Below are positions 1 to 59,102 of a stretch of 64,000 nucleotides of DNA, piece by piece; the first letter of the stretch is position 1; each line of letters begins with the position of its first letter. The stretch covers positions 159,027 through 223,026 of the forward strand of contig JBKBRB010000002.1 in assembly GCA_046292465.1 (NCBI GenBank), read 5' to 3'. A model generated the notes under the pieces. The model did no database searches. It was not told the DNA's origin and was given only the letters and a program-made list of their open reading frames with translations. A program made the position numbers and the translations under genes. The DNA is from Chloroherpetonaceae bacterium (lineage in GTDB: Bacteria > Bacteroidota > Chlorobiia > Chlorobiales > Thermochlorobacteraceae).

Positions 1-48
1 AAAGTGCGCGCCGCAGCGTGGACAGACTTTTTCTTCGTGATGTGGCAT
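1..48 (-). CDS. 5' end of a gene running off the left edge (N-terminus MPHHEEKVCPRCGAHF, CxxC zinc-ribbon-like)
   Basis: The reverse complement of 1-48 reads ATG CCA CAT CAC GAA GAA AAA GTC TGT CCA CGC TGC GGC GCG CAC TTT and is open to the edge. It is absent from the ORF track because it is truncated. Only 16 codons are visible. Confidence 0.3.
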   Translation of the reverse strand, partial: MPHHEEKVCPRCGAHF

Positions 49-193: not shown

Positions 194-1039
194 TTAAAAC
201 GATGTCAGTTGTGCTTTGCGCTTGCGTGCATGCGACTCTGCATCTTGGCTATCGATTTTGCCTATGCTGGCTGTTTCCCAATCGCCATACATTGGATTTG
301 GCAACACGATGAAACGCTTGCCGAATCGGTCTTTGAGCCGCTCAACTTCGCGATTGCGTTCATCTGCCGACTTATGCTCGAAGGCTTCGCTGAAATCGGC
401 AAGGTTATCGCCACAGAGCAAGATGACTTCGTAGTTTTGAGCCACTTTTTGCCTTCGTGCTTCTTTGCTCGGATAATCTGCTCTCAGTAGCAAGTGCGCG
501 CTATCGGCAAATGGGAATTTCCACAGTTGAAGATTTTGCAAGGTTGCGGCAAAAAGCGATTGGCTTCGATTCGAGATGTAAAAGACCTCCACGCCTTTTT
601 GCTTTGCCTCATCGAGAAATTCCAGTGCGCCCGGCGTCGGTCGTGCCTTGGCTAAGCGGCACCACTCTTCCCAATATGCAGGGTGCGTTGTATCGCGCTC
701 AATCAACTTCGCTTGATGTGGCGAATTATCCAGCACAGTTTCGTCGATATCGACGATGATTGCTTTAGGCTTTTGCGTTTTTGTTTTAATGGCTTCGTTC
801 AAGCGCAACGCGGCTAATTGATAGGCTTGGTAGTAAAGGGCTTTCGCTTCGCCTGACTGCTGTTGCCACAGTGTCGCCATCACGGTTTGCTCTGCAACTG
901 ACTCGTGCTTTTCAACCATAGACGTTTTCACAAGTGCGCGCGTCGGCACAGGCTCAGATTGGTCTCTCGCCAAATAAAACACCAAGAAAAAAACGCCGAT
1001 AGCCAGCGTCATCAAGAGCGTAAATGTTGTTCGGTTCAT
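194..1039 (-). CDS. 5'-nucleotidase / class C acid phosphatase, lipoprotein e(P4) family (HAD superfamily)
   Basis: 281-aa ORF with an N-terminal hydrophobic anchor. HAD motif I is IIVDIDETVLDNS, followed by YISNR and GDNLADF, as in e(P4)/class C acid phosphatases. Confidence 0.8.
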   Translation of the reverse strand: MNRTTFTLLMTLAIGVFFLVFYLARDQSEPVPTRALVKTSMVEKHESVAEQTVMATLWQQQSGEAKALYYQAYQLAALRLNEAIKTKTQKPKAIIVDIDETVLDNSPHQAKLIERDTTHPAYWEEWCRLAKARPTPGALEFLDEAKQKGVEVFYISNRSQSLFAATLQNLQLWKFPFADSAHLLLRADYPSKEARRQKVAQNYEVILLCGDNLADFSEAFEHKSADERNREVERLKDRFGKRFIVLPNPMYGDWETASIGKIDSQDAESHARKRKAQLTSF

Positions 1040-1071
1040 GTGAGCACTTCTGTTTTTAGTTACACAACGAC

Positions 1072-1278
1072 TTAGCGGGCTTCGCTTAACGCTTTTTCAA
1101 ACCACGATAGCACATTGCGCCAATGGGCTTCACCATAACAGCGAATGAAGTGAAGGGTATGCTCATTGCGCTTATCGCGCAAGGCTTCTATGCGTTGTTG
1201 GATGTAGGACTTCGTCAATGCGATGCCACAATCTTCTGTAATGCATCGCCGCCATTCTGAATAACTTTGTGGAATCAT
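1072..1278 (-). CDS. small hypothetical protein (68 aa)
   Basis: Its start overlaps the stop of the upstream gene as ATGA (1275-1278), suggesting translational coupling. I recognise no domain. Confidence 0.5.
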   Translation of the reverse strand: MIPQSYSEWRRCITEDCGIALTKSYIQQRIEALRDKRNEHTLHFIRCYGEAHWRNVLSWFEKALSEAR

Positions 1279-1841
1279 TTCTCGTCCGTTTGTGCGGTTT
1301 TATAGATGATTTCGTTTCGCTTAATACCGTTTTCATACTCTTCGACTTTCAGGACTCTGCCACGCTTATCCCAAAATGTCCAGTTCCCGATTGCAGTGTC
1401 GTTTTGATAGTGCGCCTCTTGGCAGAGCACAGAATCTTCGTGCCAATAAAGCCATTTGCCGTGCTTTTTGCCGTTGGCGTAAGTTTCGGAGCGGCATCGT
1501 GAGCCATTTTCATGGAAGAATGTCCAAACAGAGAGCAAGTCGTTGTGCTCTTGTTGATACTCGCCTTCGCAAAGTTTTCTACCGCTGAAATCCCAGTAAG
1601 TCCATTTGCCTGTGGGCAAGCCGCGCTCGTCGTAGTGCTCAATGCTTTGCAGTTGTCCATTGGCAAACCAGGTCGAACAGATGCCAATCTTGACCAATCG
1701 TCCGTCCTGCAATCGCTTTGCTGTAAAGACGGCTCTTGGCTGTCCGTTCAAGTAGAGCCATCGATTTTCGCCTTCTCTCACACATGCTGACAGCAGCATC
1801 GATAGGCATGCCAAAAGCCAAATTTGTTTAGTCTTTGCCAT
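1275..1841 (-). CDS. MORN-variant repeat lipoprotein (YwqK-like repeats)
   Basis: Signal peptide plus lipobox (LLSAC). Repeated G-x-W-x-[YF]-W units are present (GKWTYWDFSGR, HGKWLYWHEDS, IGNWTFWDKRGR). Confidence 0.65.
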   Translation of the reverse strand: MAKTKQIWLLACLSMLLSACVREGENRWLYLNGQPRAVFTAKRLQDGRLVKIGICSTWFANGQLQSIEHYDERGLPTGKWTYWDFSGRKLCEGEYQQEHNDLLSVWTFFHENGSRCRSETYANGKKHGKWLYWHEDSVLCQEAHYQNDTAIGNWTFWDKRGRVLKVEEYENGIKRNEIIYKTAQTDEK

Positions 1842-2397
1842 CTTGCTGTGGCTTTCGTTTTAGGCAGTAGTTTTTTGCCGCTCCGACGGCAATGCCGAAG
1901 GGACAGAGGTAATGACAAGCACCACGTTTGCCGAACAGCATCACTGAAAACCCAATCAGCGTCAGAATGATGAAGTGTCCTGCCTGAACGAAGAGATTAT
2001 CATCGCCTTGCAGGGGCAAGTGAATTGGCAGTTCACCTTCGCTGAACATGGTGTCTGTAAAGAGCCACACGAGCGGCGTCCAAATGACGAGCACAAAGAG
2101 CACGAGATATTGAGAAATTTTGGGGTTAAACGAGACACGTTTTTTGGCAATCGGCTCGAGCCAATCTTGCACGCCGCCGAGCCAACAGAAATTCGCGCAT
2201 ACCCAGCGTCCACTTCGCGCCGCCCAAAGAATGACCGCTGTCCAAAACGCTAAGCCAAACAATGCCCACCAGATATTTGGAACGGTAAACTTGATGATGA
2301 AAATATGCACAATAACCGTCGTGGCTTGTAGAATCAAGCGTCGGCGCAGGTCTTTATGCCGTTTTTCCGACACTTTCGGCGTTACTGATACGTTCAT
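1828..2397 (-). CDS. polytopic membrane protein with NapH/Fer4_5-type cysteine motifs
   Basis: 189 aa with several hydrophobic helices. The motifs GRWVCANFCWLGG and KRGACHYLCPFG match the R-x-x-C-x3-C-P-x-G pattern of NapH/NosH-like membrane ferredoxins. Confidence 0.55.
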   Translation of the reverse strand: MNVSVTPKVSEKRHKDLRRRLILQATTVIVHIFIIKFTVPNIWWALFGLAFWTAVILWAARSGRWVCANFCWLGGVQDWLEPIAKKRVSFNPKISQYLVLFVLVIWTPLVWLFTDTMFSEGELPIHLPLQGDDNLFVQAGHFIILTLIGFSVMLFGKRGACHYLCPFGIAVGAAKNYCLKRKPQQDGKD

Positions 2398-2403
2398 TTT
2401 TAC

Positions 2404-2418
2404 TGCAAACGATTTGCA
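2404..2418. promoter_or_regulatory. 7-1-7 inverted repeat, second copy (gene-sense TGCAAAT-C-GTTTGCA)
   Basis: The plus strand reads TGCAAACGATTTGCA, 7 nt upstream of the ATG at 2397 in the 54-nt gap after the ABC ATPase gene. It differs from the perfect copy at 4656-4670 by one half-site mismatch. Confidence 0.5.
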
Positions 2419-2451
2419 TTTACAAAAAAAGTAAAAAAAATACTTGTTGCT

Positions 2452-3153
2452 CTAATCGCGCATATACTCGAGATAAAGTTTTTCTAAATCGGCGTGGCGT
2501 GCATCGTCAGCGTTTAAGATGGCAACGAGTTCGCCATGTTTCATAATGCCCAAGCGCGCCGCAATTTCCTTTGCGCGAAAAAGGTCGTGCGTTGCCATCA
2601 GCACCGCGACGCCTCTTTGAGCAAGACTTTTCAAGCGTTCAGAAAATTCGAACGAGGCTTTCGGGTCTAAGCCGCTGGTTGGTTCGTCGAGTAAGAGTGC
2701 TTTGGCGTCTTTGGCAAGCGCAATCGCAATGCCCACTTTTTGTCGCATTCCTTTCGAGTAGGTGCTGACGCGCTTTGAGTGGACTTCCTTCTCTAAACCT
2801 GCTTGCGAAAGCAAGTCTGAAAGGGCATCGATCGAATAAGTTTTGCCTGATAGAGTGGCGAAGTATTCCAAATTTTCAAGCCCTGTAAGGTTGGGGTAAA
2901 GCATAACAGTTTCGGGAATGTAGGCAAGGTGCTTTTTCGTCTCCAAGGGCTGTTGATGGACGCTAATTCCTGCAATTTTCGCCTCGCCGCTTGTTGGCGC
3001 AAGAAAGCCTAAAAAGAGATTGATGGTTGTGGTTTTGCCCGCACCGTTTTGCCCAAGCAAACAGAAAATTTCACCTGAATTTACTTTCAGATTCAATCCT
3101 TTAAGTGCGGGCGTTCCGTTGTAAGATTTCGTTAGGTCAATTGCCTCGAGCAT
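2452..3153 (-). CDS. ABC transporter ATP-binding protein (ABC-2/NosF/CcmA-like size)
   Basis: Walker A is GQNGAGKTTT. An LSGG-like signature region is followed by Walker B LLLDEPTSGLD and an H-loop ATHD. Length is 233 aa. Confidence 0.9.
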   Translation of the reverse strand: MLEAIDLTKSYNGTPALKGLNLKVNSGEIFCLLGQNGAGKTTTINLFLGFLAPTSGEAKIAGISVHQQPLETKKHLAYIPETVMLYPNLTGLENLEYFATLSGKTYSIDALSDLLSQAGLEKEVHSKRVSTYSKGMRQKVGIAIALAKDAKALLLDEPTSGLDPKASFEFSERLKSLAQRGVAVLMATHDLFRAKEIAARLGIMKHGELVAILNADDARHADLEKLYLEYMRD

Positions 3154-3352
3154 GGTTTTTGAGTGATTGTTCGTGTGCGGCTTTGGCTTTGATGAAGTCG
3201 CCTATGTTGTTAGCATGTGCGCCTGAATGTCCCATCATCAGTCCGCATGCGCATCGCAGTTGGGACGGTCTGCCGAATCCGCCGCTTTGCATTGTGCCGC
3301 ACCCAGCCAGCAGTGCCGCACCGAGTATCAACATCACAATTTTTTTCATCAT
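3137..3352 (-). CDS. 71-aa Cys/His/Met-rich lipoprotein
   Basis: Signal peptide with lipobox LLAGC. The mature part carries RCAC, MMGH and several His. Its 3' end overlaps the ABC ATPase start by 17 nt. Confidence 0.5.
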   Translation of the reverse strand: MMKKIVMLILGAALLAGCGTMQSGGFGRPSQLRCACGLMMGHSGAHANNIGDFIKAKAAHEQSLKNHARGN

Positions 3353-3374
3353 CGTTTAGCGGTTGTGTGTTCAG

Positions 3375-4601
3375 TTATGCTTCTTGAAACTGCCAATCGG
3401 GGAACGGGTCAATATAAGTTTCCCAAACGGATTCGCCTTGTGCCATTTCGTCAGGCGTGAGCAAGGCTTCTTCAAGGCGCGCGATGATTTCGGCTTTGTC
3501 CATACCCACGCCAATGAACACAAGTTCTTGGCGTCGGTCGCCATACTTACCGACGAAACTTGCTTCAATTTCGCGTTTGAGTTCATCGTCGACGCCCCAC
3601 TGCGATTTTGGCACGCTTGCCCACCACGAGCCTGCCGACGAGAGATTCAGCGCGCCACCGGCTTGCGCCCATTCGCCGACCGTTTTCATGCGCGTTGCAA
3701 GCCAAAAGAATCCTTTTGAGCGAACCACGCCTTTCCATGCGTCAGCATCTTGCACCAAATTCCACAGCCGTGTTGGGTGAAACGGCTTTCGCGCACCGAA
3801 TACAAAACTTGAAATGCCATATTCTTCCGTTTCGGGCGTGTGTTCGCCGCGCATTTCTTTGAGCCACATTGGCGCGTTTGCCGCTTCCTCAAAATTAAAC
3901 TTGCCTGTGTTCAAGACTTTCTCGAGCGGAACTTTTCCAAAAACGGCTTCAACAATTTCTGCGCGTGGATTCAAGGCATGAATAACGGCTTTCACTTGCG
4001 CCTTTTCCGACTCTGAAACGCGGTCGAGCTTATTGAGCACAACTACATCACAAAACTCGACTTGTTCGACGAGCAGGTCGGCAATGGTGCGATGGTCATC
4101 TTCTCCCAACGCCTGTCCGCGTCGTTTCAAGAAGTCGGCACGCTGATATTCGTAAAGAAAATTAGACGCATCGACGACGGTAACCATAGTATCGAGGCGT
4201 GCAATATCGGAAAGGCTTCTGCCTTGTTCGTCTTCGAACGTGAAGGTTTCGGCGACGGGCAACGGTTCAGAAATGCCTGTGGATTCAATCACAAGGTAAT
4301 CGAAGCGACCTTCGCGTGCGAGTTTGGCGACTTCGATAAGCAAGTCTTCGCGCAAGGTGCAACAAATACAGCCGTTCTGCATCTCGACGAGTTTTTCATC
4401 GGTGCGCGAAAGTTTTGCTCCGCCTTGTTTAATCAACGCGGCATCGATGTTGACTTCGCTCATATCGTTGACAATCACGGCAACCTTTTTGCCTTCGCGA
4501 TTGGCAAGAATGTGATTGAGAAGCGTCGTTTTGCCCGCGCCCAAAAATCCTGACAAAACCGTTACGGGTAGTTTCTTTATGGGTGTGATTTTCTTTGCCA
4601 T
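3375..4601 (-). CDS. CobW/COG0523-family GTP-binding metallochaperone (ZigA/YeiR-like)
   Basis: P-loop [15 protein letters not shown], the metal motif CICCTLRED, and a CobW C-terminal domain. The ORF track starts at 4622, but by my reading that codon is TGG. The ATG at 4601 ([18 protein letters not shown]) fits family N-termini. Confidence 0.88.
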
Positions 4602-4655
4602 TTGAATAAACTTTTCTTGCACTTTTCCGAAAGGTAACTGTGATTTTTAAGAATT

Positions 4656-4670
4656 GCAAATCATTTGCAT
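4656..4670. promoter_or_regulatory. perfect 7-1-7 palindrome TGCAAATCATTTGCA (Fur/Zur-box-like architecture)
   Basis: It lies about 55 nt upstream of the COG0523 ATG (4601), in the divergent intergenic region 4602-4883. Its shape matches the Fur-family box TGATAATnATTATCA. Confidence 0.5.
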
Positions 4671-4883
4671 TTTCAAAATTAGCGAACAAGTCTTCTTCAT
4701 TCAAGCCTGATTATTTTGGAAACTTTATTCAACAAAAAAGTTTTTTCTTGCTTGATTTTTGATTCCAAAAGTCGTTTTGGGCGACTTCACTTTTCTCAAA
4801 AACGCTTGTAAACACAAGGAGATTCGGGGCATCGAGCGTATTTTACCGATGTCAAGTTTTTACTTCAAGGAAGGAGTTATACA

Positions 4884-5801
4884 ATGAATAAGCAACAAAT
4901 TCTGCTCGCACTTGCCCTGCTTTACATCATCTCGCAAGTTGTTTTGCTCGTTACCGTCGGCAAAGATTTAGAGTTGATTGTAATTTCGCTCGGCGTATTT
5001 ATCGCCAGTGTCGTCGTGGTGATGATGGTCGGCGAAATTTCAATCGGTCGCCCTGTCATAGAGAGCGTCTCGATGCGCCGTGCCGAACGCCCCAAAGCCG
5101 AACAAGAAAAAATGATTCGTGAAGGCTACCAAATTGACGACGAATTTTTGAAGAAAAAGCGTTTTGATTTTTTCCGAGGACACGAAAAATATACAGCACC
5201 GCCATGTTCATCATCGGCTTCGGCTTCTGAATCTGCATCAGAGAAAACACCACAAGAAAAGTTGAGAGCGGGCTTAATCGCACAAGCCCCCATGTTTGGC
5301 GGCATTGAAAAACTTGGGGCGATGCTTGAAAAAACTGATGACGCAAAAGTGCTCAAAATGCTCCGGCAATTTGGATATCAAGATGTAAGCGCAGCGGAAG
5401 TGCGTATCATTGTGGCTGAGATTATCAAAGGCGAGACGAACGCTCCTGAATCTGGAAGTGGCAACGGCACTTACCGCTTACCTACATCGCTCAACACGGT
5501 TGATTTTTATGACTACATTAAGCGATGCATGTCGGGCAACGATATGGAATCTAAACGCGAAGCACCGACGATTACAGGCATGGAGATTTTAGAACAAGCC
5601 TCTGCAACGATTGAGGGCAACTCTTTACGTGCGATGGTCAGAATGCGCGGCGTTCATAAGGGCGGTGGCGTTAGGAAGTGCAACTCCTGCCAATTCTATC
5701 AAGCCAACACGATGCTCTGCACGAAAATCGGATTGGAAGTCGAGCACAACGATGTTTGCGATGGTTGGACAGCGAATGTGGCTTATCAAGCGTTTCGCTA
5801 A
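4884..5801 (+). CDS. membrane-anchored hypothetical protein with C-terminal HiPIP-like 4-Cys motif
   Basis: AAGGAAGGAG lies upstream of the ATG. Two N-terminal hydrophobic helices are present. The C-terminus reads CNSCQFYQANTMLCTKIGLEVEHNDVCDGWT. Confidence 0.6.
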   Translation: MNKQQILLALALLYIISQVVLLVTVGKDLELIVISLGVFIASVVVVMMVGEISIGRPVIESVSMRRAERPKAEQEKMIREGYQIDDEFLKKKRFDFFRGHEKYTAPPCSSSASASESASEKTPQEKLRAGLIAQAPMFGGIEKLGAMLEKTDDAKVLKMLRQFGYQDVSAAEVRIIVAEIIKGETNAPESGSGNGTYRLPTSLNTVDFYDYIKRCMSGNDMESKREAPTITGMEILEQASATIEGNSLRAMVRMRGVHKGGGVRKCNSCQFYQANTMLCTKIGLEVEHNDVCDGWTANVAYQAFR

Positions 5802-8914: not shown

Positions 8915-9736
8915 TTATGGATTCACAATGCTATTCACAGCGCGCATAAATTCGGAACGGGTTGCGCTGTTGAGCAAGAACACGCCGCCGAGTTTGCTTG
9001 TAACGGTATCGGAATTGACATCTTCAACACCGCGCGATTTGACGCAATAATGCTTAGCGTGAATGAGCACCGCAATATCTTCCGTGTCCAAAATGTAGGA
9101 GAGCGCGTAAAAAATTTGTTCCGTCAGTCGCTCTTGAATTTGCGGACGCTTGGCGAAGTATTCCACAATGCGGTTGATTTTGGAAAGTCCTAAAACTTTC
9201 TTTTTGGGAATGTAAGCCACGTGCGCGCGCCCGTCAATAATGACAAAGTGATGCTCACAGTTGCTTTGCACGTTGATGTTTCGCTCGATGACCATTGAGC
9301 TATATCCCATCTTGTTTTCAACGGTCGTGCATTTTGGGAAATTGCGCCAATCGAGACCGAAGAAAATTTCGTCGACATACATTTGCGCTACGCGCTTTGG
9401 CGTATCGGCGAGGCTGTCGTCGGATAAATCTAATCCGAGTGTGCGCATGATTTCGGCGAAGTTGCGCGCAATGATGGTGCGTTTTTCGTCATCGCTCAAA
9501 CCGGTATCGATTTGAGGCGTCGCAACCCCTTTTTCAATCAAGAACTGCGCCACACGTCTGCCGAGCTCGGGGTCGGTCTTTTGGCTTCGCCGAATCGGTT
9601 CATCGTCCAAATAAAGGTCAGGACTTGAACTATTGACGACGATGATTTCATCTTCATCGTGAAAGCCGTTGCCGTTTATCTTATTCGCCACGATAGACGA
9701 CGAAATTTCGCTCGGATTCGAAGACTTTGATTTCAT
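8915..9736 (-). CDS. folE: GTP cyclohydrolase I (FolE) with N-terminal extension
   Basis: The catalytic core CEHHFVIIDGRAHVAYIP is present. The start is uncertain: the ATG at 9736 overlaps the upstream gene by 56 nt, and in-frame GTG (9691) and TTG (9610) are alternatives. Confidence 0.88.
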   Translation of the reverse strand: MKSKSSNPSEISSSIVANKINGNGFHDEDEIIVVNSSSPDLYLDDEPIRRSQKTDPELGRRVAQFLIEKGVATPQIDTGLSDDEKRTIIARNFAEIMRTLGLDLSDDSLADTPKRVAQMYVDEIFFGLDWRNFPKCTTVENKMGYSSMVIERNINVQSNCEHHFVIIDGRAHVAYIPKKKVLGLSKINRIVEYFAKRPQIQERLTEQIFYALSYILDTEDIAVLIHAKHYCVKSRGVEDVNSDTVTSKLGGVFLLNSATRSEFMRAVNSIVNP

Positions 9737-10199
9737 ACAAGTCTATTCCTTTCAAATTAAGTTGTTTGAGTTTTTCGTTGATTACTTCCCAAAACACAAC
9801 GGCTATCACTTCCGCTGTCGGCACCGTGTCGCGGAACATTTCAACATCAAAGTTCAGGTGCTTATGATCGACTTTGGAAATAATTTCTTCCTCGAGAATT
9901 TTTTTGAGGATTTTCAGGTCAAAGAGATACCCTGTTTCTTTCTCGACGATTCCCGTCAAGGTTACTTCTAACTCGTAGTTATGTCCGTGTCCGTAGAAAT
10001 TGTTACAAATGTCATAGACTTCGCAATTTTTCTCGTCTGAGAAAGTCGGATTGAACAGGCGATGCGCAGCGTTGAAGTGGACTTTGCGCGTTACATAAAC
10101 CTTACGCGGCTTAGAGAGCACTTTATTGATTTCGCGTTGCTCGCTTGGTGCTTGCCAAACTTCTTTGGCGTCAGGTGTGTGTTCTATAAGGTCTATCAT
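9681..10199 (-). CDS. 6-pyruvoyl-tetrahydropterin synthase (PTPS, animal/PTPS-I-like)
   Basis: FNAAHRLFNPTFSDEKN...CNNFYGHGHNYELEVTL and the C-terminal FVVYRGE closely follow the mammalian PTPS pattern. The ATG at 10199 follows the upstream stop (10207) by 7 nt; the track ORF extends to 10346. Confidence 0.85.
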   Translation of the reverse strand: MIDLIEHTPDAKEVWQAPSEQREINKVLSKPRKVYVTRKVHFNAAHRLFNPTFSDEKNCEVYDICNNFYGHGHNYELEVTLTGIVEKETGYLFDLKILKKILEEEIISKVDHKHLNFDVEMFRDTVPTAEVIAVVFWEVINEKLKQLNLKGIDLYEIKVFESERNFVVYRGE

Positions 10200-13087: not shown

Positions 13088-15985
13088 TCACCTCACCACA
13101 ACCATTTTCCTCGTTGCCGAAGCGCGCCCGATTTGAAGACGATAGAAATACACGCCAGTTGCTAATCGGCTTGCGTTGAAGTCCAAACGGTAAGCTTCTG
13201 GCTCTTGAAAGCCGCTCACCAATGTTGCTACTTCCCTGCCCAACACATCATAGACTTTAAGCGAGACAAAGCCTGCTTGAAGCACACGGTATTCAATCGT
13301 GGTGATAGGATTGAACGGATTCGGATAATTTTGCGAGAGTTCTAAAATCTGCGGTTCAGACGAAACAGGTTTTCCGCTTTGCAAGTCTGTTAATTGCTCG
13401 AAGAGTTGACCGCCTTGTGTGAGTGCTAAGGCGCGCGCGTTACGCCCTTCTTTTGTCGCCAAGAGTTGAATGAGTTTATCTTCGCCTTCGATTGGCAGAG
13501 TTTCTTCTCGAAAGGTTGTTCCGCCGTCGGTTGAGTTCCATACTCGTTGATTTCCGCCAACCCACATACGAGCCGTCTCACGGATTCCTGTTGCGGTTTC
13601 AAGCGGCGCATTGATGGCTGAAACCTCGCGCCACGTGCCTTCGGAAAATCGTTGCAAGTAAGGCGGATTGTTGGAAACGCGAACTCCGTTCTGTTCATCG
13701 CGAAAGAAAATTGCGCCGACATAGCCGCCGCCTGTTGATTCTTTGCGCCATGAAGTTCCGCCGTCGCTTGTGGCGTAAAGATTACCGTTTGTTGCGCCGC
13801 CAAAAAATCCGACAAGAGAATTAACAAAATTGATTGAGCGCGTCCAGCCGAAGTCGCCGTTTGTCAAAGGGGCGTTTGGCAGTTCGTTCCAAGTGTTGCC
13901 ACCGTCGGTTGTCTTGACGATGAGAAAGCGTGTGCGGTTTTGCGGCGCATCGCTTACGGCGTAGCCTGTGTCTTGGTTTGTCATTGCAATTCCGTTCCAC
14001 CACGCGCCCAAGTCGCCTTGATACACCACGCTCCAACTTTTGCCCCCGTCAATCGTTTTGAACAATCGTGCGGCGATTGCGCCCGATGTCGAACTTTCGC
14101 CTTCTCCAACAATCGCCGTTAGCGAATCGATTGCCGAAACCGCATCGAGGTTTTGCGCTGTCGGTGCAATACATCGCTGAAATGAAGTGCCACCATCTGT
14201 TGAGCGAAACACTGCGCCGCTTTCGCCAACCAACCAAAGCGTTTTGTCGCTTGCCATGCTGATTGCGCGTGCGCGCGTGGAAACAGACGAGAGAAATTTC
14301 CATGTGGAATTGGATATGCGAAGCACTGAAAAATCGTTGTAGCCCGCAATGGCGTCGCTGAACGAAAGTCGGAGCAAGCGAGGCGAGGCATCGGGCGTGC
14401 GAATTGTGAGCCGAAATACGAGCCGAAGCGTATCGTTTGTGTTTAGACGTGGCGAGGATTGAAACGGATTGGTAATCGTAACGCCACCGTTGAGCGATTG
14501 CAATTCAAACGAAATTGCGCTCGAGGTCGGCGCATTGTGATTGACAAGCGTAACGACAAGCGACTGCGTCAGGCTTTCATAATCGTATTGCGCCACTTCC
14601 AAGCCGGGCGTAGTGCGCGTTAAGGCTTGAAAGGCGTTGAGCCGACCTTTGCCCAAGAGATTCGCATTTGCAGGATTGAGCGCATCGAGCGATTCTGCGG
14701 TTGCGCGAAGTTGTGTGCGAATGCGCGCCGCCGACCAATTCGGACGAAGCGATTTCAACAGCCCCGCCACACCAGCGGCAATCGGTGCCGACATCGACGT
14801 GCCCGTCAGCAATCCGTATTCACCTTCAAAGACCGTGCTTAAAATGCCGTTGCCTGTAGTGAGCACATCGAGCGCAATGCCATAACTTGAAAACGACGAG
14901 CGTTGATTGATTAACCCGCCGAAATGATTGACCGAACCAACCGAAAGCACATTTTGATACGAAGCAGGATAAACTAAGTCCGTTTCCGCCACTGTGCCGC
15001 CGTTGTTTCCCGCCGAAGCAATTACAACAACGCCTTGCGCCGAAGCAAAATTGACCACTTCATTTTCAAACGATGAAAAGCCACTTGCGCCCCAACTGCA
15101 ATTCACTACGGACGCACCATTTGCGACGGCATAAAGCATTGCCTCAAATCCGAAGCCGACGGCAGTTGGCTCCGCTTGTGTGCCGCCCGCTTTGAGATTC
15201 ATATACCGGCAATTATAGCCAATGCCGGCTATGCCAATGCTGTTGTTGGTTTCCGCCGTTGCAATGCCTGCCACGTGTGTGCCGTGAACGAAAAAGTCTC
15301 CGCGTGGGTCGTTATCCTGCACAGGATTCGCAACCGTTCCATCTTGCCAAAAGTCCCAGCCCATCACATCATCGATGAAGCCGTTGCCGTCGTCGTCGAG
15401 GTTGTTGTTTGGAATTTCGCCTGTGTTTATCCACATCTTGCCTGCAAGGTCGGGGTGAAGGTAGTCGACGCCGCTGTCGATGATGGCGATAATCACATCA
15501 CGGTTTCCTTGTGAAATATCCCACGCTTGAAAGAGTCGGTGATAGTCGAGGTAATTTTGCGAAGAGAACGATGTGCCGATGAGCGGGTCGTTAGGCACAA
15601 CGTGAAGCGTGTGAATGTATTTCGGCTCAACCCACTCGAAGAGGTCGAGCTTTTGGAGGCGTGAGGCGATGAGCGATTCATCGAGATGTTCAGGAAAGGT
15701 AAGCGTGTAAATGCGCGAAATGGATTGCAGACTTTTCGATTCGAGTTGATTTGGCGCGTTGCGTGCGGCGGTTTTTTCTAATGCGTGTTGATGTGCGGCA
15801 GTCCAAATTGGCGCAAGTTGAATTTCTGTTGATATGCTTTTGAGTAATCTTGTTGGAGTTTCAGTGCGAAGCGCGTCGCTCGATTTGAACTTCACCATTA
15901 GCACGCCTTTTGCAACCTGCCTCTCTTGGCTCTTCGCCGTTATTCCAATTAGCAGTATTCCAAACAGAGTGAGAAAAATTTTCAT
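13088..15985 (-). CDS. secreted S8 (subtilisin-family) peptidase fused to an Asp-box beta-propeller, with a T9SS C-terminal sorting domain
   Basis: The catalytic triad context is IIDSGVD, HGTHVAGIA and GTSMSAPIAAG. Five Asp-box motifs are present (STDGGTSF, IDGGKSW, TDGGNTW, SDGGTSW, STDGGTTF). The C-terminus is NYPNPFNPITTIEY...VYDVLGREV...GVYFYRLQ. Confidence 0.9.
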   Translation of the reverse strand: MKIFLTLFGILLIGITAKSQERQVAKGVLMVKFKSSDALRTETPTRLLKSISTEIQLAPIWTAAHQHALEKTAARNAPNQLESKSLQSISRIYTLTFPEHLDESLIASRLQKLDLFEWVEPKYIHTLHVVPNDPLIGTSFSSQNYLDYHRLFQAWDISQGNRDVIIAIIDSGVDYLHPDLAGKMWINTGEIPNNNLDDDGNGFIDDVMGWDFWQDGTVANPVQDNDPRGDFFVHGTHVAGIATAETNNSIGIAGIGYNCRYMNLKAGGTQAEPTAVGFGFEAMLYAVANGASVVNCSWGASGFSSFENEVVNFASAQGVVVIASAGNNGGTVAETDLVYPASYQNVLSVGSVNHFGGLINQRSSFSSYGIALDVLTTGNGILSTVFEGEYGLLTGTSMSAPIAAGVAGLLKSLRPNWSAARIRTQLRATAESLDALNPANANLLGKGRLNAFQALTRTTPGLEVAQYDYESLTQSLVVTLVNHNAPTSSAISFELQSLNGGVTITNPFQSSPRLNTNDTLRLVFRLTIRTPDASPRLLRLSFSDAIAGYNDFSVLRISNSTWKFLSSVSTRARAISMASDKTLWLVGESGAVFRSTDGGTSFQRCIAPTAQNLDAVSAIDSLTAIVGEGESSTSGAIAARLFKTIDGGKSWSVVYQGDLGAWWNGIAMTNQDTGYAVSDAPQNRTRFLIVKTTDGGNTWNELPNAPLTNGDFGWTRSINFVNSLVGFFGGATNGNLYATSDGGTSWRKESTGGGYVGAIFFRDEQNGVRVSNNPPYLQRFSEGTWREVSAINAPLETATGIRETARMWVGGNQRVWNSTDGGTTFREETLPIEGEDKLIQLLATKEGRNARALALTQGGQLFEQLTDLQSGKPVSSEPQILELSQNYPNPFNPITTIEYRVLQAGFVSLKVYDVLGREVATLVSGFQEPEAYRLDFNASRLATGVYFYRLQIGRASATRKMVVVR

Positions 15986-58574: not shown

Positions 58575-59102
58575 ATGGGCAAATCATTTGCACAGCAAGC
58601 GGCTGAAAATAAACCAAGCCTTTGGATTAATGTGAGTTTGATGTGGGGCACGGTTTTCTTCATTACGTCTATCTTCATGCTCAAACTCGCCAGCGCGACC
58701 TCTTTCTTGCCTGATTGGACCGATTCGCTTAAAGCCTATCTCTTTTATGTTGTTATGATTGTCATTGTCGCGCTTGGCGGCTATGGCGTGAACAAACTCT
58801 ACGACCCAAAAGGCGAAAAGCGCGCGAAGCGTCAAGCCGAAGTAAAATCGGGAATGAAAGAGCAGGTTTTTGTTTCGCTTTTTGGCAGTATCGCAACTGG
58901 CTTTGGGTTTTGCTTGCTCACGGCACTTTCGTTTTTGTGCGCAAAGTGGGCGATGCGTGTTCCAGCGGATTTCTCGATGCAACATGTTTTTGTTGCTGCT
59001 ATTTACAACATTGGTGCAGGTCTTGGCGGCTCGCTCTTTACGGGACTTATTTTCGTAGTGCTTAAAGCGATGGGAAAATTTCCGACCGAGCAATCGGCAT
59101 AA
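58575..59102 (+). CDS. hypothetical 4-TM membrane protein
   Basis: I chose the ATG at 58575 (MGKSFAQQAAENK); the track ORF starts at 58509 with GTG. Four hydrophobic helices are present. Confidence 0.5.
   Translation: MGKSFAQQAAENKPSLWINVSLMWGTVFFITSIFMLKLASATSFLPDWTDSLKAYLFYVVMIVIVALGGYGVNKLYDPKGEKRAKRQAEVKSGMKEQVFVSLFGSIATGFGFCLLTALSFLCAKWAMRVPADFSMQHVFVAAIYNIGAGLGGSLFTGLIFVVLKAMGKFPTEQSA

Follow-up and report, generated by a model that had tools for sequence, protein, structure and literature searches.

Which regulator governs the seven genes at the left end of this stretch of DNA, and to what signal would it respond? The stretch analysed (hereafter the window) comprises 64 kb of contig JBKBRB010000002.1 from a Chloroherpetonaceae/Chlorobiales metagenome-assembled genome (MAG), which is close to Candidatus Thermochlorobacter aerophilum. 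Positions 194-4601 are occupied by seven minus-strand genes, all co-directional and headed by a COG0523 gene of the zigA type, and two copies of a short palindrome, here called operators (or sites) A and B, lie in the promoter-proximal gaps of this string. We conclude that both palindromes are operators of a Fur-family repressor, most probably Zur, and place the probability of this reading at about 80%. The initial annotation of the locus had also favoured a dimeric Fur-family protein, probably Zur, and this is now supported by identical sites published for other bacteria, by the assignment of the first gene to the ZigA equivalog, by the conservation of the sites and by a third copy in a related genome.

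The spacings measured between the open reading frames of the string are +22, −17, +54, −14, −4 and +32 nucleotides (nt), in agreement with the earlier description of seven co-directional genes spaced by −17 to +54 nt, with the 54-nt gap as the only sizable one. Gene 1 (3375-4601, minus strand) encodes a ZigA-type COG0523 zinc metallochaperone GTPase of 408 amino acids (aa). It contains the Pfam domains cobW (PF02492) and CobW_C (PF07683), its GCICC motif (general form GCxCC) is read directly from the sequence as NGCICC, and its score against the NCBIfam model of the ZigA equivalog (NF038288) is 660.5 bits, above the cutoff of 600.

Two palindromes in one gene string

Operator A, TGCAAATCATTTGCA, occupies positions 4655-4669, 53 nt upstream of the zigA start codon (ATG at 4601), and is a perfect 7-1-7 palindrome (TGCAAAT-C-ATTTGCA). 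The initial annotation had recognised a perfect palindrome upstream of the COG0523 gene, but had placed it incorrectly, at 4656-4670. Operator B reads TGCAAATCGTTTGCA in gene sense (2404-2418) and lies in the 54-nt gap; the gene that starts 6 nt further on (ATG at 2397) encodes a Fer4_5 membrane protein. A second copy with one half-site mismatch to the 7-1-7 form had been reported at these positions and was recovered by a pattern search; its 6-3-6 core, TGCAAA-N3-TTTGCA, is perfect. The window contains exactly two such cores, whereas dinucleotide shuffles had 0.08 on average, none of 100 shuffles reaching two, and a first-order Markov model gives an expectation of 0.046 per window (P for two or more approximately 0.001). 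Because so rare a core falls twice in promoter-proximal gaps of a single gene string, the palindrome pair is real and beyond chance.

The earlier statement that the window holds no third copy needs correction, as a copy with one mismatch, GGCAAATCATTTGCA, is present at 58578-58592. We rejected it as a functional site because it is coding, spanning codons 2-6 (GKSFA) in the gene for a conserved 175-aa membrane protein, and is not retained by relatives, which read AGAAAATCACTCGCA or GGGAAATCACTTGCA at the matching position (L164-L167). About 0.08 one-mismatch copies are expected by chance in the window, and this one is probably a coincidence. It directly follows an ATG (58575), and the 175-aa gene is flanked by a Vut_1 (YhhQ-type) transporter gene and an SPFH/Band_7 gene. 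Matches with three mismatches, at 15318, 19095 and 22143, were also discarded; all are inside long open reading frames, and their number is what chance predicts.

The clade comparison covered 143 kb of DNA, among it the window and the loci L004, L005, L084 and L169. Sites A and B are both perfect in Ca. Thermochlorobacter aerophilum (L005, ZigA 84% identical) and on a metagenome contig (L084, ZigA 85% identical). A 98% relative (L004) carries a perfect TGCAAATCATTTGCA at site B, and a further Chlorobiales MAG (L169, ZigA 90% identical) has a perfect site A and reads TGCAAACGATTTGCA at site B. In alignments of site A, the 18 bases AAATGCAAATGATTTGCA are invariant in the window, L169, L084 and L005 amid diverged flanks. 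At site B the block TAAATGCAAA..(A/G)TTTGCA is kept, with T or C as the first central base, again between flanks that have diverged. Ten exact cores were found in the clade, four before zigA, five before the Fer4_5 gene and one before an ABC-2 permease gene. All ten are intergenic (none in coding DNA), lie 6-75 nt upstream of start codons and have the 6-3-6 core invariant within an AT-rich 7-1-7 (or equivalent) inverted repeat. The initial annotation had named a similar frequency of the motif inside coding DNA across the genome as an outcome that would speak against operators; in this 143-kb sample the motif does not behave so. In L169, three other genes lie between zigA and the 305-aa gene that is divergent from it in the window, and the box, located between a terminator-like hairpin and zigA, remains with zigA. 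Since it stays there though the 305-aa gene is separated, the box at site A belongs, as judged from gene order, to zigA.

The core before the ABC-2 permease gene is part of a third perfect copy of the palindrome in L169 (14168-14182). It precedes by 66 nt an operon for two ABC-2/DUF3526 permeases, a DUF1826 protein and a TonB-dependent receptor, and thus a target of the type suggested earlier, namely TonB receptors or other metal genes. Zur regulons around COG0523 genes, whether predicted or measured, have been documented to include DUF1826 proteins and outer-membrane receptors (PMC2770081; PMC5786701). The targets of the palindrome in the clade, that is, the ZigA equivalog and the L169 operon with its ABC-2/DUF3526, DUF1826 and TonB-receptor genes, fit a zinc-limitation regulon. 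A degenerate second palindrome, TGCAAAATCATTTTCA, is found at 14219-14234 of L169, 36 nt downstream of the third box and still ahead of the ABC-2 permease gene, and could serve as a second, weaker operator.

Palindromes could also act in the mRNA, as small hairpins that influence translation, stability or termination. Each site can form a stem of 6 base pairs (bp) with a loop of 3 nt, and site B adjoins a start codon, so that a hairpin could mask initiation. However, the predicted folds are weak (−4.6 to −7.0 kcal/mol) and not better than those of shuffled sequences (z-scores −0.7 to −1.9), as was to be expected from the earlier judgement that an RNA hairpin would be poor. No U-tract follows either site, neither is among the terminator-like matches, and Rfam returned no match in the whole window. 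Moreover, the stem never varies in the clade, so that compensatory changes are absent, the start codon lies anywhere from 6 to 75 nt away, and the identical sequence is a proven protein-DNA site for two Fur-family proteins discussed below (Fur_1691 and MgFur). We consider a role as RNA hairpins hardly credible.

The palindrome in other bacteria

A full-text search with the 15-mer of the window led to two published binding sites. DNA affinity purification sequencing (DAP-seq) of Fur_1691 (Clo1313_1691) of Clostridium thermocellum gave the strongest peak before a zinc ABC transporter, at the site TGCAAATcATTTGCA, and the authors concluded that this protein is a zinc uptake regulator (PMC8457756). 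The window 15-mer is identical to TGCAAATcATTTGCA. Both sites are pseudo-palindromic, located upstream of zinc-limitation genes and conserved in related species. They differ in that C. thermocellum is a member of the Firmicutes and the window organism of a Chlorobi-type phylum, that the target is znuABC-like there and consists of zigA and accessory genes here, and that binding was demonstrated there and is predicted for the window sites. The second site is the DNA TTAATTGCAAATCATTTGCAATTGC, an engineered feoAB1 operator that was co-crystallized with Fur of Magnetospirillum gryphiswaldense (MgFur) (PMC4506495). The window 15-mer is identical to its core, on which one Fur dimer is bound (PDB 4RB1 series). 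This DNA differs from the native operator by three base changes, and the regulator senses iron or manganese and has an iron-transport target. Because the Fur_1691 DAP-seq site and the MgFur co-crystal share the sequence, the 15-mer is a proven Fur-family dimer site elsewhere. A paper on PgFur was rejected as a motif match, as its overlap with the 15-mer is through primer sequences only.

Zur boxes are palindromic, 7-1-7 forms included, and zigA is part of the Zur regulon in Acinetobacter baumannii (PMC6103462); the sequences of classical Zur boxes are given in PMC2706843. Boxes of the Bacillus subtilis type, such as TAAATCGTAATNATTACGATTTA before yciC/zagA, resemble those of the window in being AT-rich 7-1-7 inverted repeats with a subfamily-1 COG0523 gene downstream, which in B. 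subtilis is derepressed on zinc limitation (PMC2706843; PMC2770081; PMC6103462). Their half-site is TCGTAAT, whereas it is TGCAAAT here, where only the 6-3-6 core is invariant in the clade. The A. baumannii Zur-zigA system shares with the window a ZigA equivalog, regulated there by Zur together with TonB receptors. The gammaproteobacterial box (GAAATGTTATANTATAACATTTC type; PMC2706843), in contrast, is unrelated in sequence, and the operon partners are others.

Outside the clade, we analysed 157 zigA-like loci (58-66% identical) from genomes and metagenomes. The relaxed core TGCAA-N5-TTGCA had 29 occurrences, spread over 24 loci, in the 45 kb of DNA that reach up to 300 nt upstream of the gene, and 22 in the remaining 1.56 Mb, an upstream enrichment of approximately 45-fold. 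Each of 60 permuted half-site controls gave at most one upstream occurrence. Another 26 loci carried the classical proteobacterial GTTAT..ATAAC Zur box upstream. Exact cores adjoin Fur-family genes in four loci (L053, L126, L130 and L140). In L053 (Thermoanaerobaculia) the core separates zigA from a Fur-family gene, in L126 it precedes a zigA-Fur-family pair as an 11-3-11 palindrome, and in L140 it has on one side a Fur-family gene, accompanied by a HisI paralog and another COG0523 gene, and on the other an operon whose last gene is zigA. Multi-COG0523 clusters are headed by exact cores in L140 and in L148, in the latter between two COG0523 paralogs. These neighbourhoods place the motif class where Zur boxes would be expected and among the genes that would be expected to accompany them. 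Among the zigA-like loci of other phyla (L006-L163), the carriers of TGCAA-N5-TTGCA include Herbaspirillum, Methylophilus, Methylotenera, Vampirovibrio, Spartobacteria/Chthoniobacter, Polyangiales and Thermoanaerobaculia, and the copies are frequently paired, 10-50 nt apart.

The probable binding protein and its signal

We infer that Zur is the binding protein and zinc the signal, that the boxes overlap promoters and that site B has a separate promoter. Under zinc-sufficient conditions, a zinc-loaded Zur dimer would bind symmetrically to each TGCAAAT-N-ATTTGCA box, with TGCAAATNATTTGCA as the predicted target, and would block RNA polymerase at two promoters. The first would lie before the genes for ZigA, a lipoprotein and an ABC ATPase, and the second, internal to the string, before those for the Fer4_5 membrane protein, a MORN lipoprotein, a 68-aa protein and an e(P4) phosphatase. 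A shortage of zinc would deprive Zur of its regulatory zinc and release it from the DNA, so that both units would be expressed.

Several results weigh against this interpretation. The initial annotation had recommended locating Fur/Zur-family genes, and none was located in the sequences searched. A tblastn search with approximate sequences of Escherichia coli Fur and B. subtilis PerR, and with Fur-family neighbours taken from other loci, detected no Fur-family gene either in the window or in the clade DNA (143 kb). A profile search built on four Fur-family proteins encoded next to the motif gave 3336 matches, the best 120 of which included none labelled as from this lineage. Gene 7, which is closest to the left end of the window, was looked up by exact protein identity; a single 30.6-kb contig was returned, which added no new sequence. 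The Fur-family neighbours in other phyla score below every NCBIfam equivalog cutoff and are not typable as Zur by sequence; comparisons with PDB and NCBIfam were non-discriminating in this respect. Nor is the metal fixed by the DNA sequence, because the iron/manganese-responsive MgFur binds the identical core. Finally, a scan with the sigma-70 consensus called no promoter at site A or B, and in the window organism no more than 6 nt separate site B from the annotated start codon, a spacing that leaves the promoter geometry ambiguous.

Other observations bear on the promoters. In L005 and L084, site B lies 21-22 nt upstream of the start codon, with a clear AGGAG between. A candidate −10-like element, TAAAAAT (4643-4649, minus strand), is found 5 nt downstream of operator A, and an A.AAT pattern recurs at this offset (5-6 nt) in four lineages (TAAAAAT, AGAAAAT, TGAAAAT and TGAGAAT). 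TAAAAA-like runs also follow site B in the alignment. These elements would fit boxes that overlap the −35/spacer region. Site B may guard a promoter of its own, or may act as a roadblock. A region of 282 nt separates zigA from the divergent 305-aa gene (4884-5801), which matches no family. Upstream of operator A, this region contains a hairpin with an 8-bp stem (AAGTCG..CGACTT; 4769-4787) and, as its sole sigma-70-like match, TTGAAG-17-TAAAAT (4868-4840, minus strand), approximately 170 nt upstream of site A.

The boxes could alternatively be operators of another Fur-family paralog (Fur, Mur, Nur or PerR), with iron, manganese, nickel or peroxide as the signal. The Fe2+/Mn2+-activated M. gryphiswaldense Fur binds the identical core, gene 4 carries a 4Fe-4S-type Fer4_5 domain, TonB receptors and ABC systems such as those behind the third site of L169 are also typical iron targets, and the failure to find a cognate regulator gene in the window or the clade DNA leaves room for such a paralog. 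This is countered by the identity of gene 1 as a ZigA equivalog, by the classical Zur box before orthologous genes in the other 26 loci, by the Comamonas Zur box between cobW and a small-protein-FUR-znuCBA operon, by the recurrence of DUF1826 in Zur regulons (PMC2770081; PMC5786701) and by the assignment of the exact 15-mer to a zinc regulator by DAP-seq (PMC8457756). Regulation by a different paralog is therefore unlikely, and Zur remains the preferred candidate.

Could a regulator from outside the Fur family bind the boxes? Beyond gene 7 the string runs on co-directionally (window 1-48 and past the left end; L001 14554-15308) with genes for a Cys_rich_CWC protein, an ArsR/SmtB metalloregulator and a thioredoxin-like protein. 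The ArsR/SmtB gene (L001 14840-15145) thus lies just outside the window on the left and has the orientation of the string that it follows. A LacI-type protein may also be considered, as TGCAAATCGTTTGCA, the variant at site B, bears a superficial resemblance to the TGnAAnCGnTTnCA sites of the LacI family. However, no ArsR homologue is present in the L005, L084 and L169 loci, which keep the boxes; the gene was seen only beside the string of this strain, and we rejected it as the cognate regulator because it is not conserved together with the boxes. In addition, two palindromes unlike the boxes, TTTCGTA-N4-TACGAAA and GCGAATAA-G-TTATTCGC, lie downstream of the ArsR gene, before the next gene, and may constitute the ArsR operator. 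As to LacI, its sites have even symmetry about a central CG; the symmetry of the boxes, which measure 15 bp, is odd and leaves the centre free. We regard binding by a non-Fur regulator of either type as very improbable, and Zur as the protein that best accounts for the boxes.

Genes behind the probable operators and their significance

Behind operator A, zigA is followed by two genes. Gene 2 (3137-3352, minus strand) encodes a predicted lipoprotein of 71 aa with a conserved Cys/His stretch (RCACGL..GH.GAHA); it has no family match in Pfam or NCBIfam, and its conservation is limited to the clade. Gene 3 (2452-3153, minus strand) encodes an ABC-transporter ATPase (Pfam ABC_tran), and the string contains no permease gene. 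Its homologues in L150 and L153, 51% identical and located beside zigA, are directly followed by ABC-2/DUF3526 permease pairs. Given these arrangements and the position of the L169 permeases behind the third operator, the orphan ATPase probably works with co-regulated permeases encoded elsewhere.

Operator B is followed by four genes, all on the minus strand. The first, gene 4 (1828-2397), encodes a membrane protein of 189 aa with a Fer4_5 domain of the NapH/NosR type (PF12801, E = 4e-10) and has homologues within the clade only. Gene 5 (1275-1841) encodes a MORN-repeat lipoprotein of 188 aa (Pfam MORN_2), and gene 6 (1072-1278) a protein of 68 aa. Gene 7 (194-1039) encodes a lipoprotein 5'-nucleotidase/class C acid phosphatase of the e(P4) family (Pfam Acid_phosphat_B; 284 bits against NCBIfam TIGR01533, cutoff 216).

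The product of gene 6 belongs to an unannotated family that recurs by zigA-type genes in many phyla. The family comprises at least 680 clusters, every source name given being "hypothetical", and the protein has no sequence match in Pfam, NCBIfam or PDB. Its invariant residues are Y6, W9, C12, C17, R29, Y48, G49 and W59. The structure is confidently predicted as a domain of four helices (predicted local distance difference test score, pLDDT, 94.6), and the model has no fold match in PDB. Homologues stand beside zigA-type COG0523 genes in nine unrelated loci. The Comamonas homologue is the first gene of the small-protein-FUR-znuCBA operon behind the classical Zur box, and that of L172 lies beside cobW and FUR genes, whereas that of a Vibrio locus does not. 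We tentatively suggest that operator B may mark an undescribed zinc-limitation module, made up of the Fer4_5 protein, the MORN lipoprotein, the 68-aa protein and the e(P4) phosphatase, in which the 68-aa family might be a regular Zur-regulon partner of ZigA-type chaperones, for example as an adaptor or client-targeting factor.

Approximately 4-5 kb from zigA, the window encodes an unusually long GTP cyclohydrolase I (273 aa) and a PTPS/QueD-type enzyme (8915-10199, minus strand). No box was found ahead of these genes. Zinc is used by both enzyme families, and in B. subtilis FolE has been reported as a client of a COG0523 chaperone.

Zur-type boxes in front of zigA operons are well known, and this very sequence is already on record from another phylum; new are the lineage and the content of the operon. 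No zinc regulon of Chloroherpetonaceae/Thermochlorobacter-type phototrophs is described in the literature searched, and the present analysis provides a Zur-box model for them (core TGCAAA-N3-TTTGCA, consensus TGCAAAT-N-ATTTGCA). It also places a related TGCAA-N5-TTGCA class before zigA orthologues in many phyla, alongside the better-known GTTAT..ATAAC class. The understanding of Zur regulation itself is unchanged, as the switch is of an ordinary and well-understood type. The motif can be used to read zinc-limitation regulons from MAGs, and the accessory genes of the string, together with the 68-aa family, are flagged as candidates for functions in zinc starvation.

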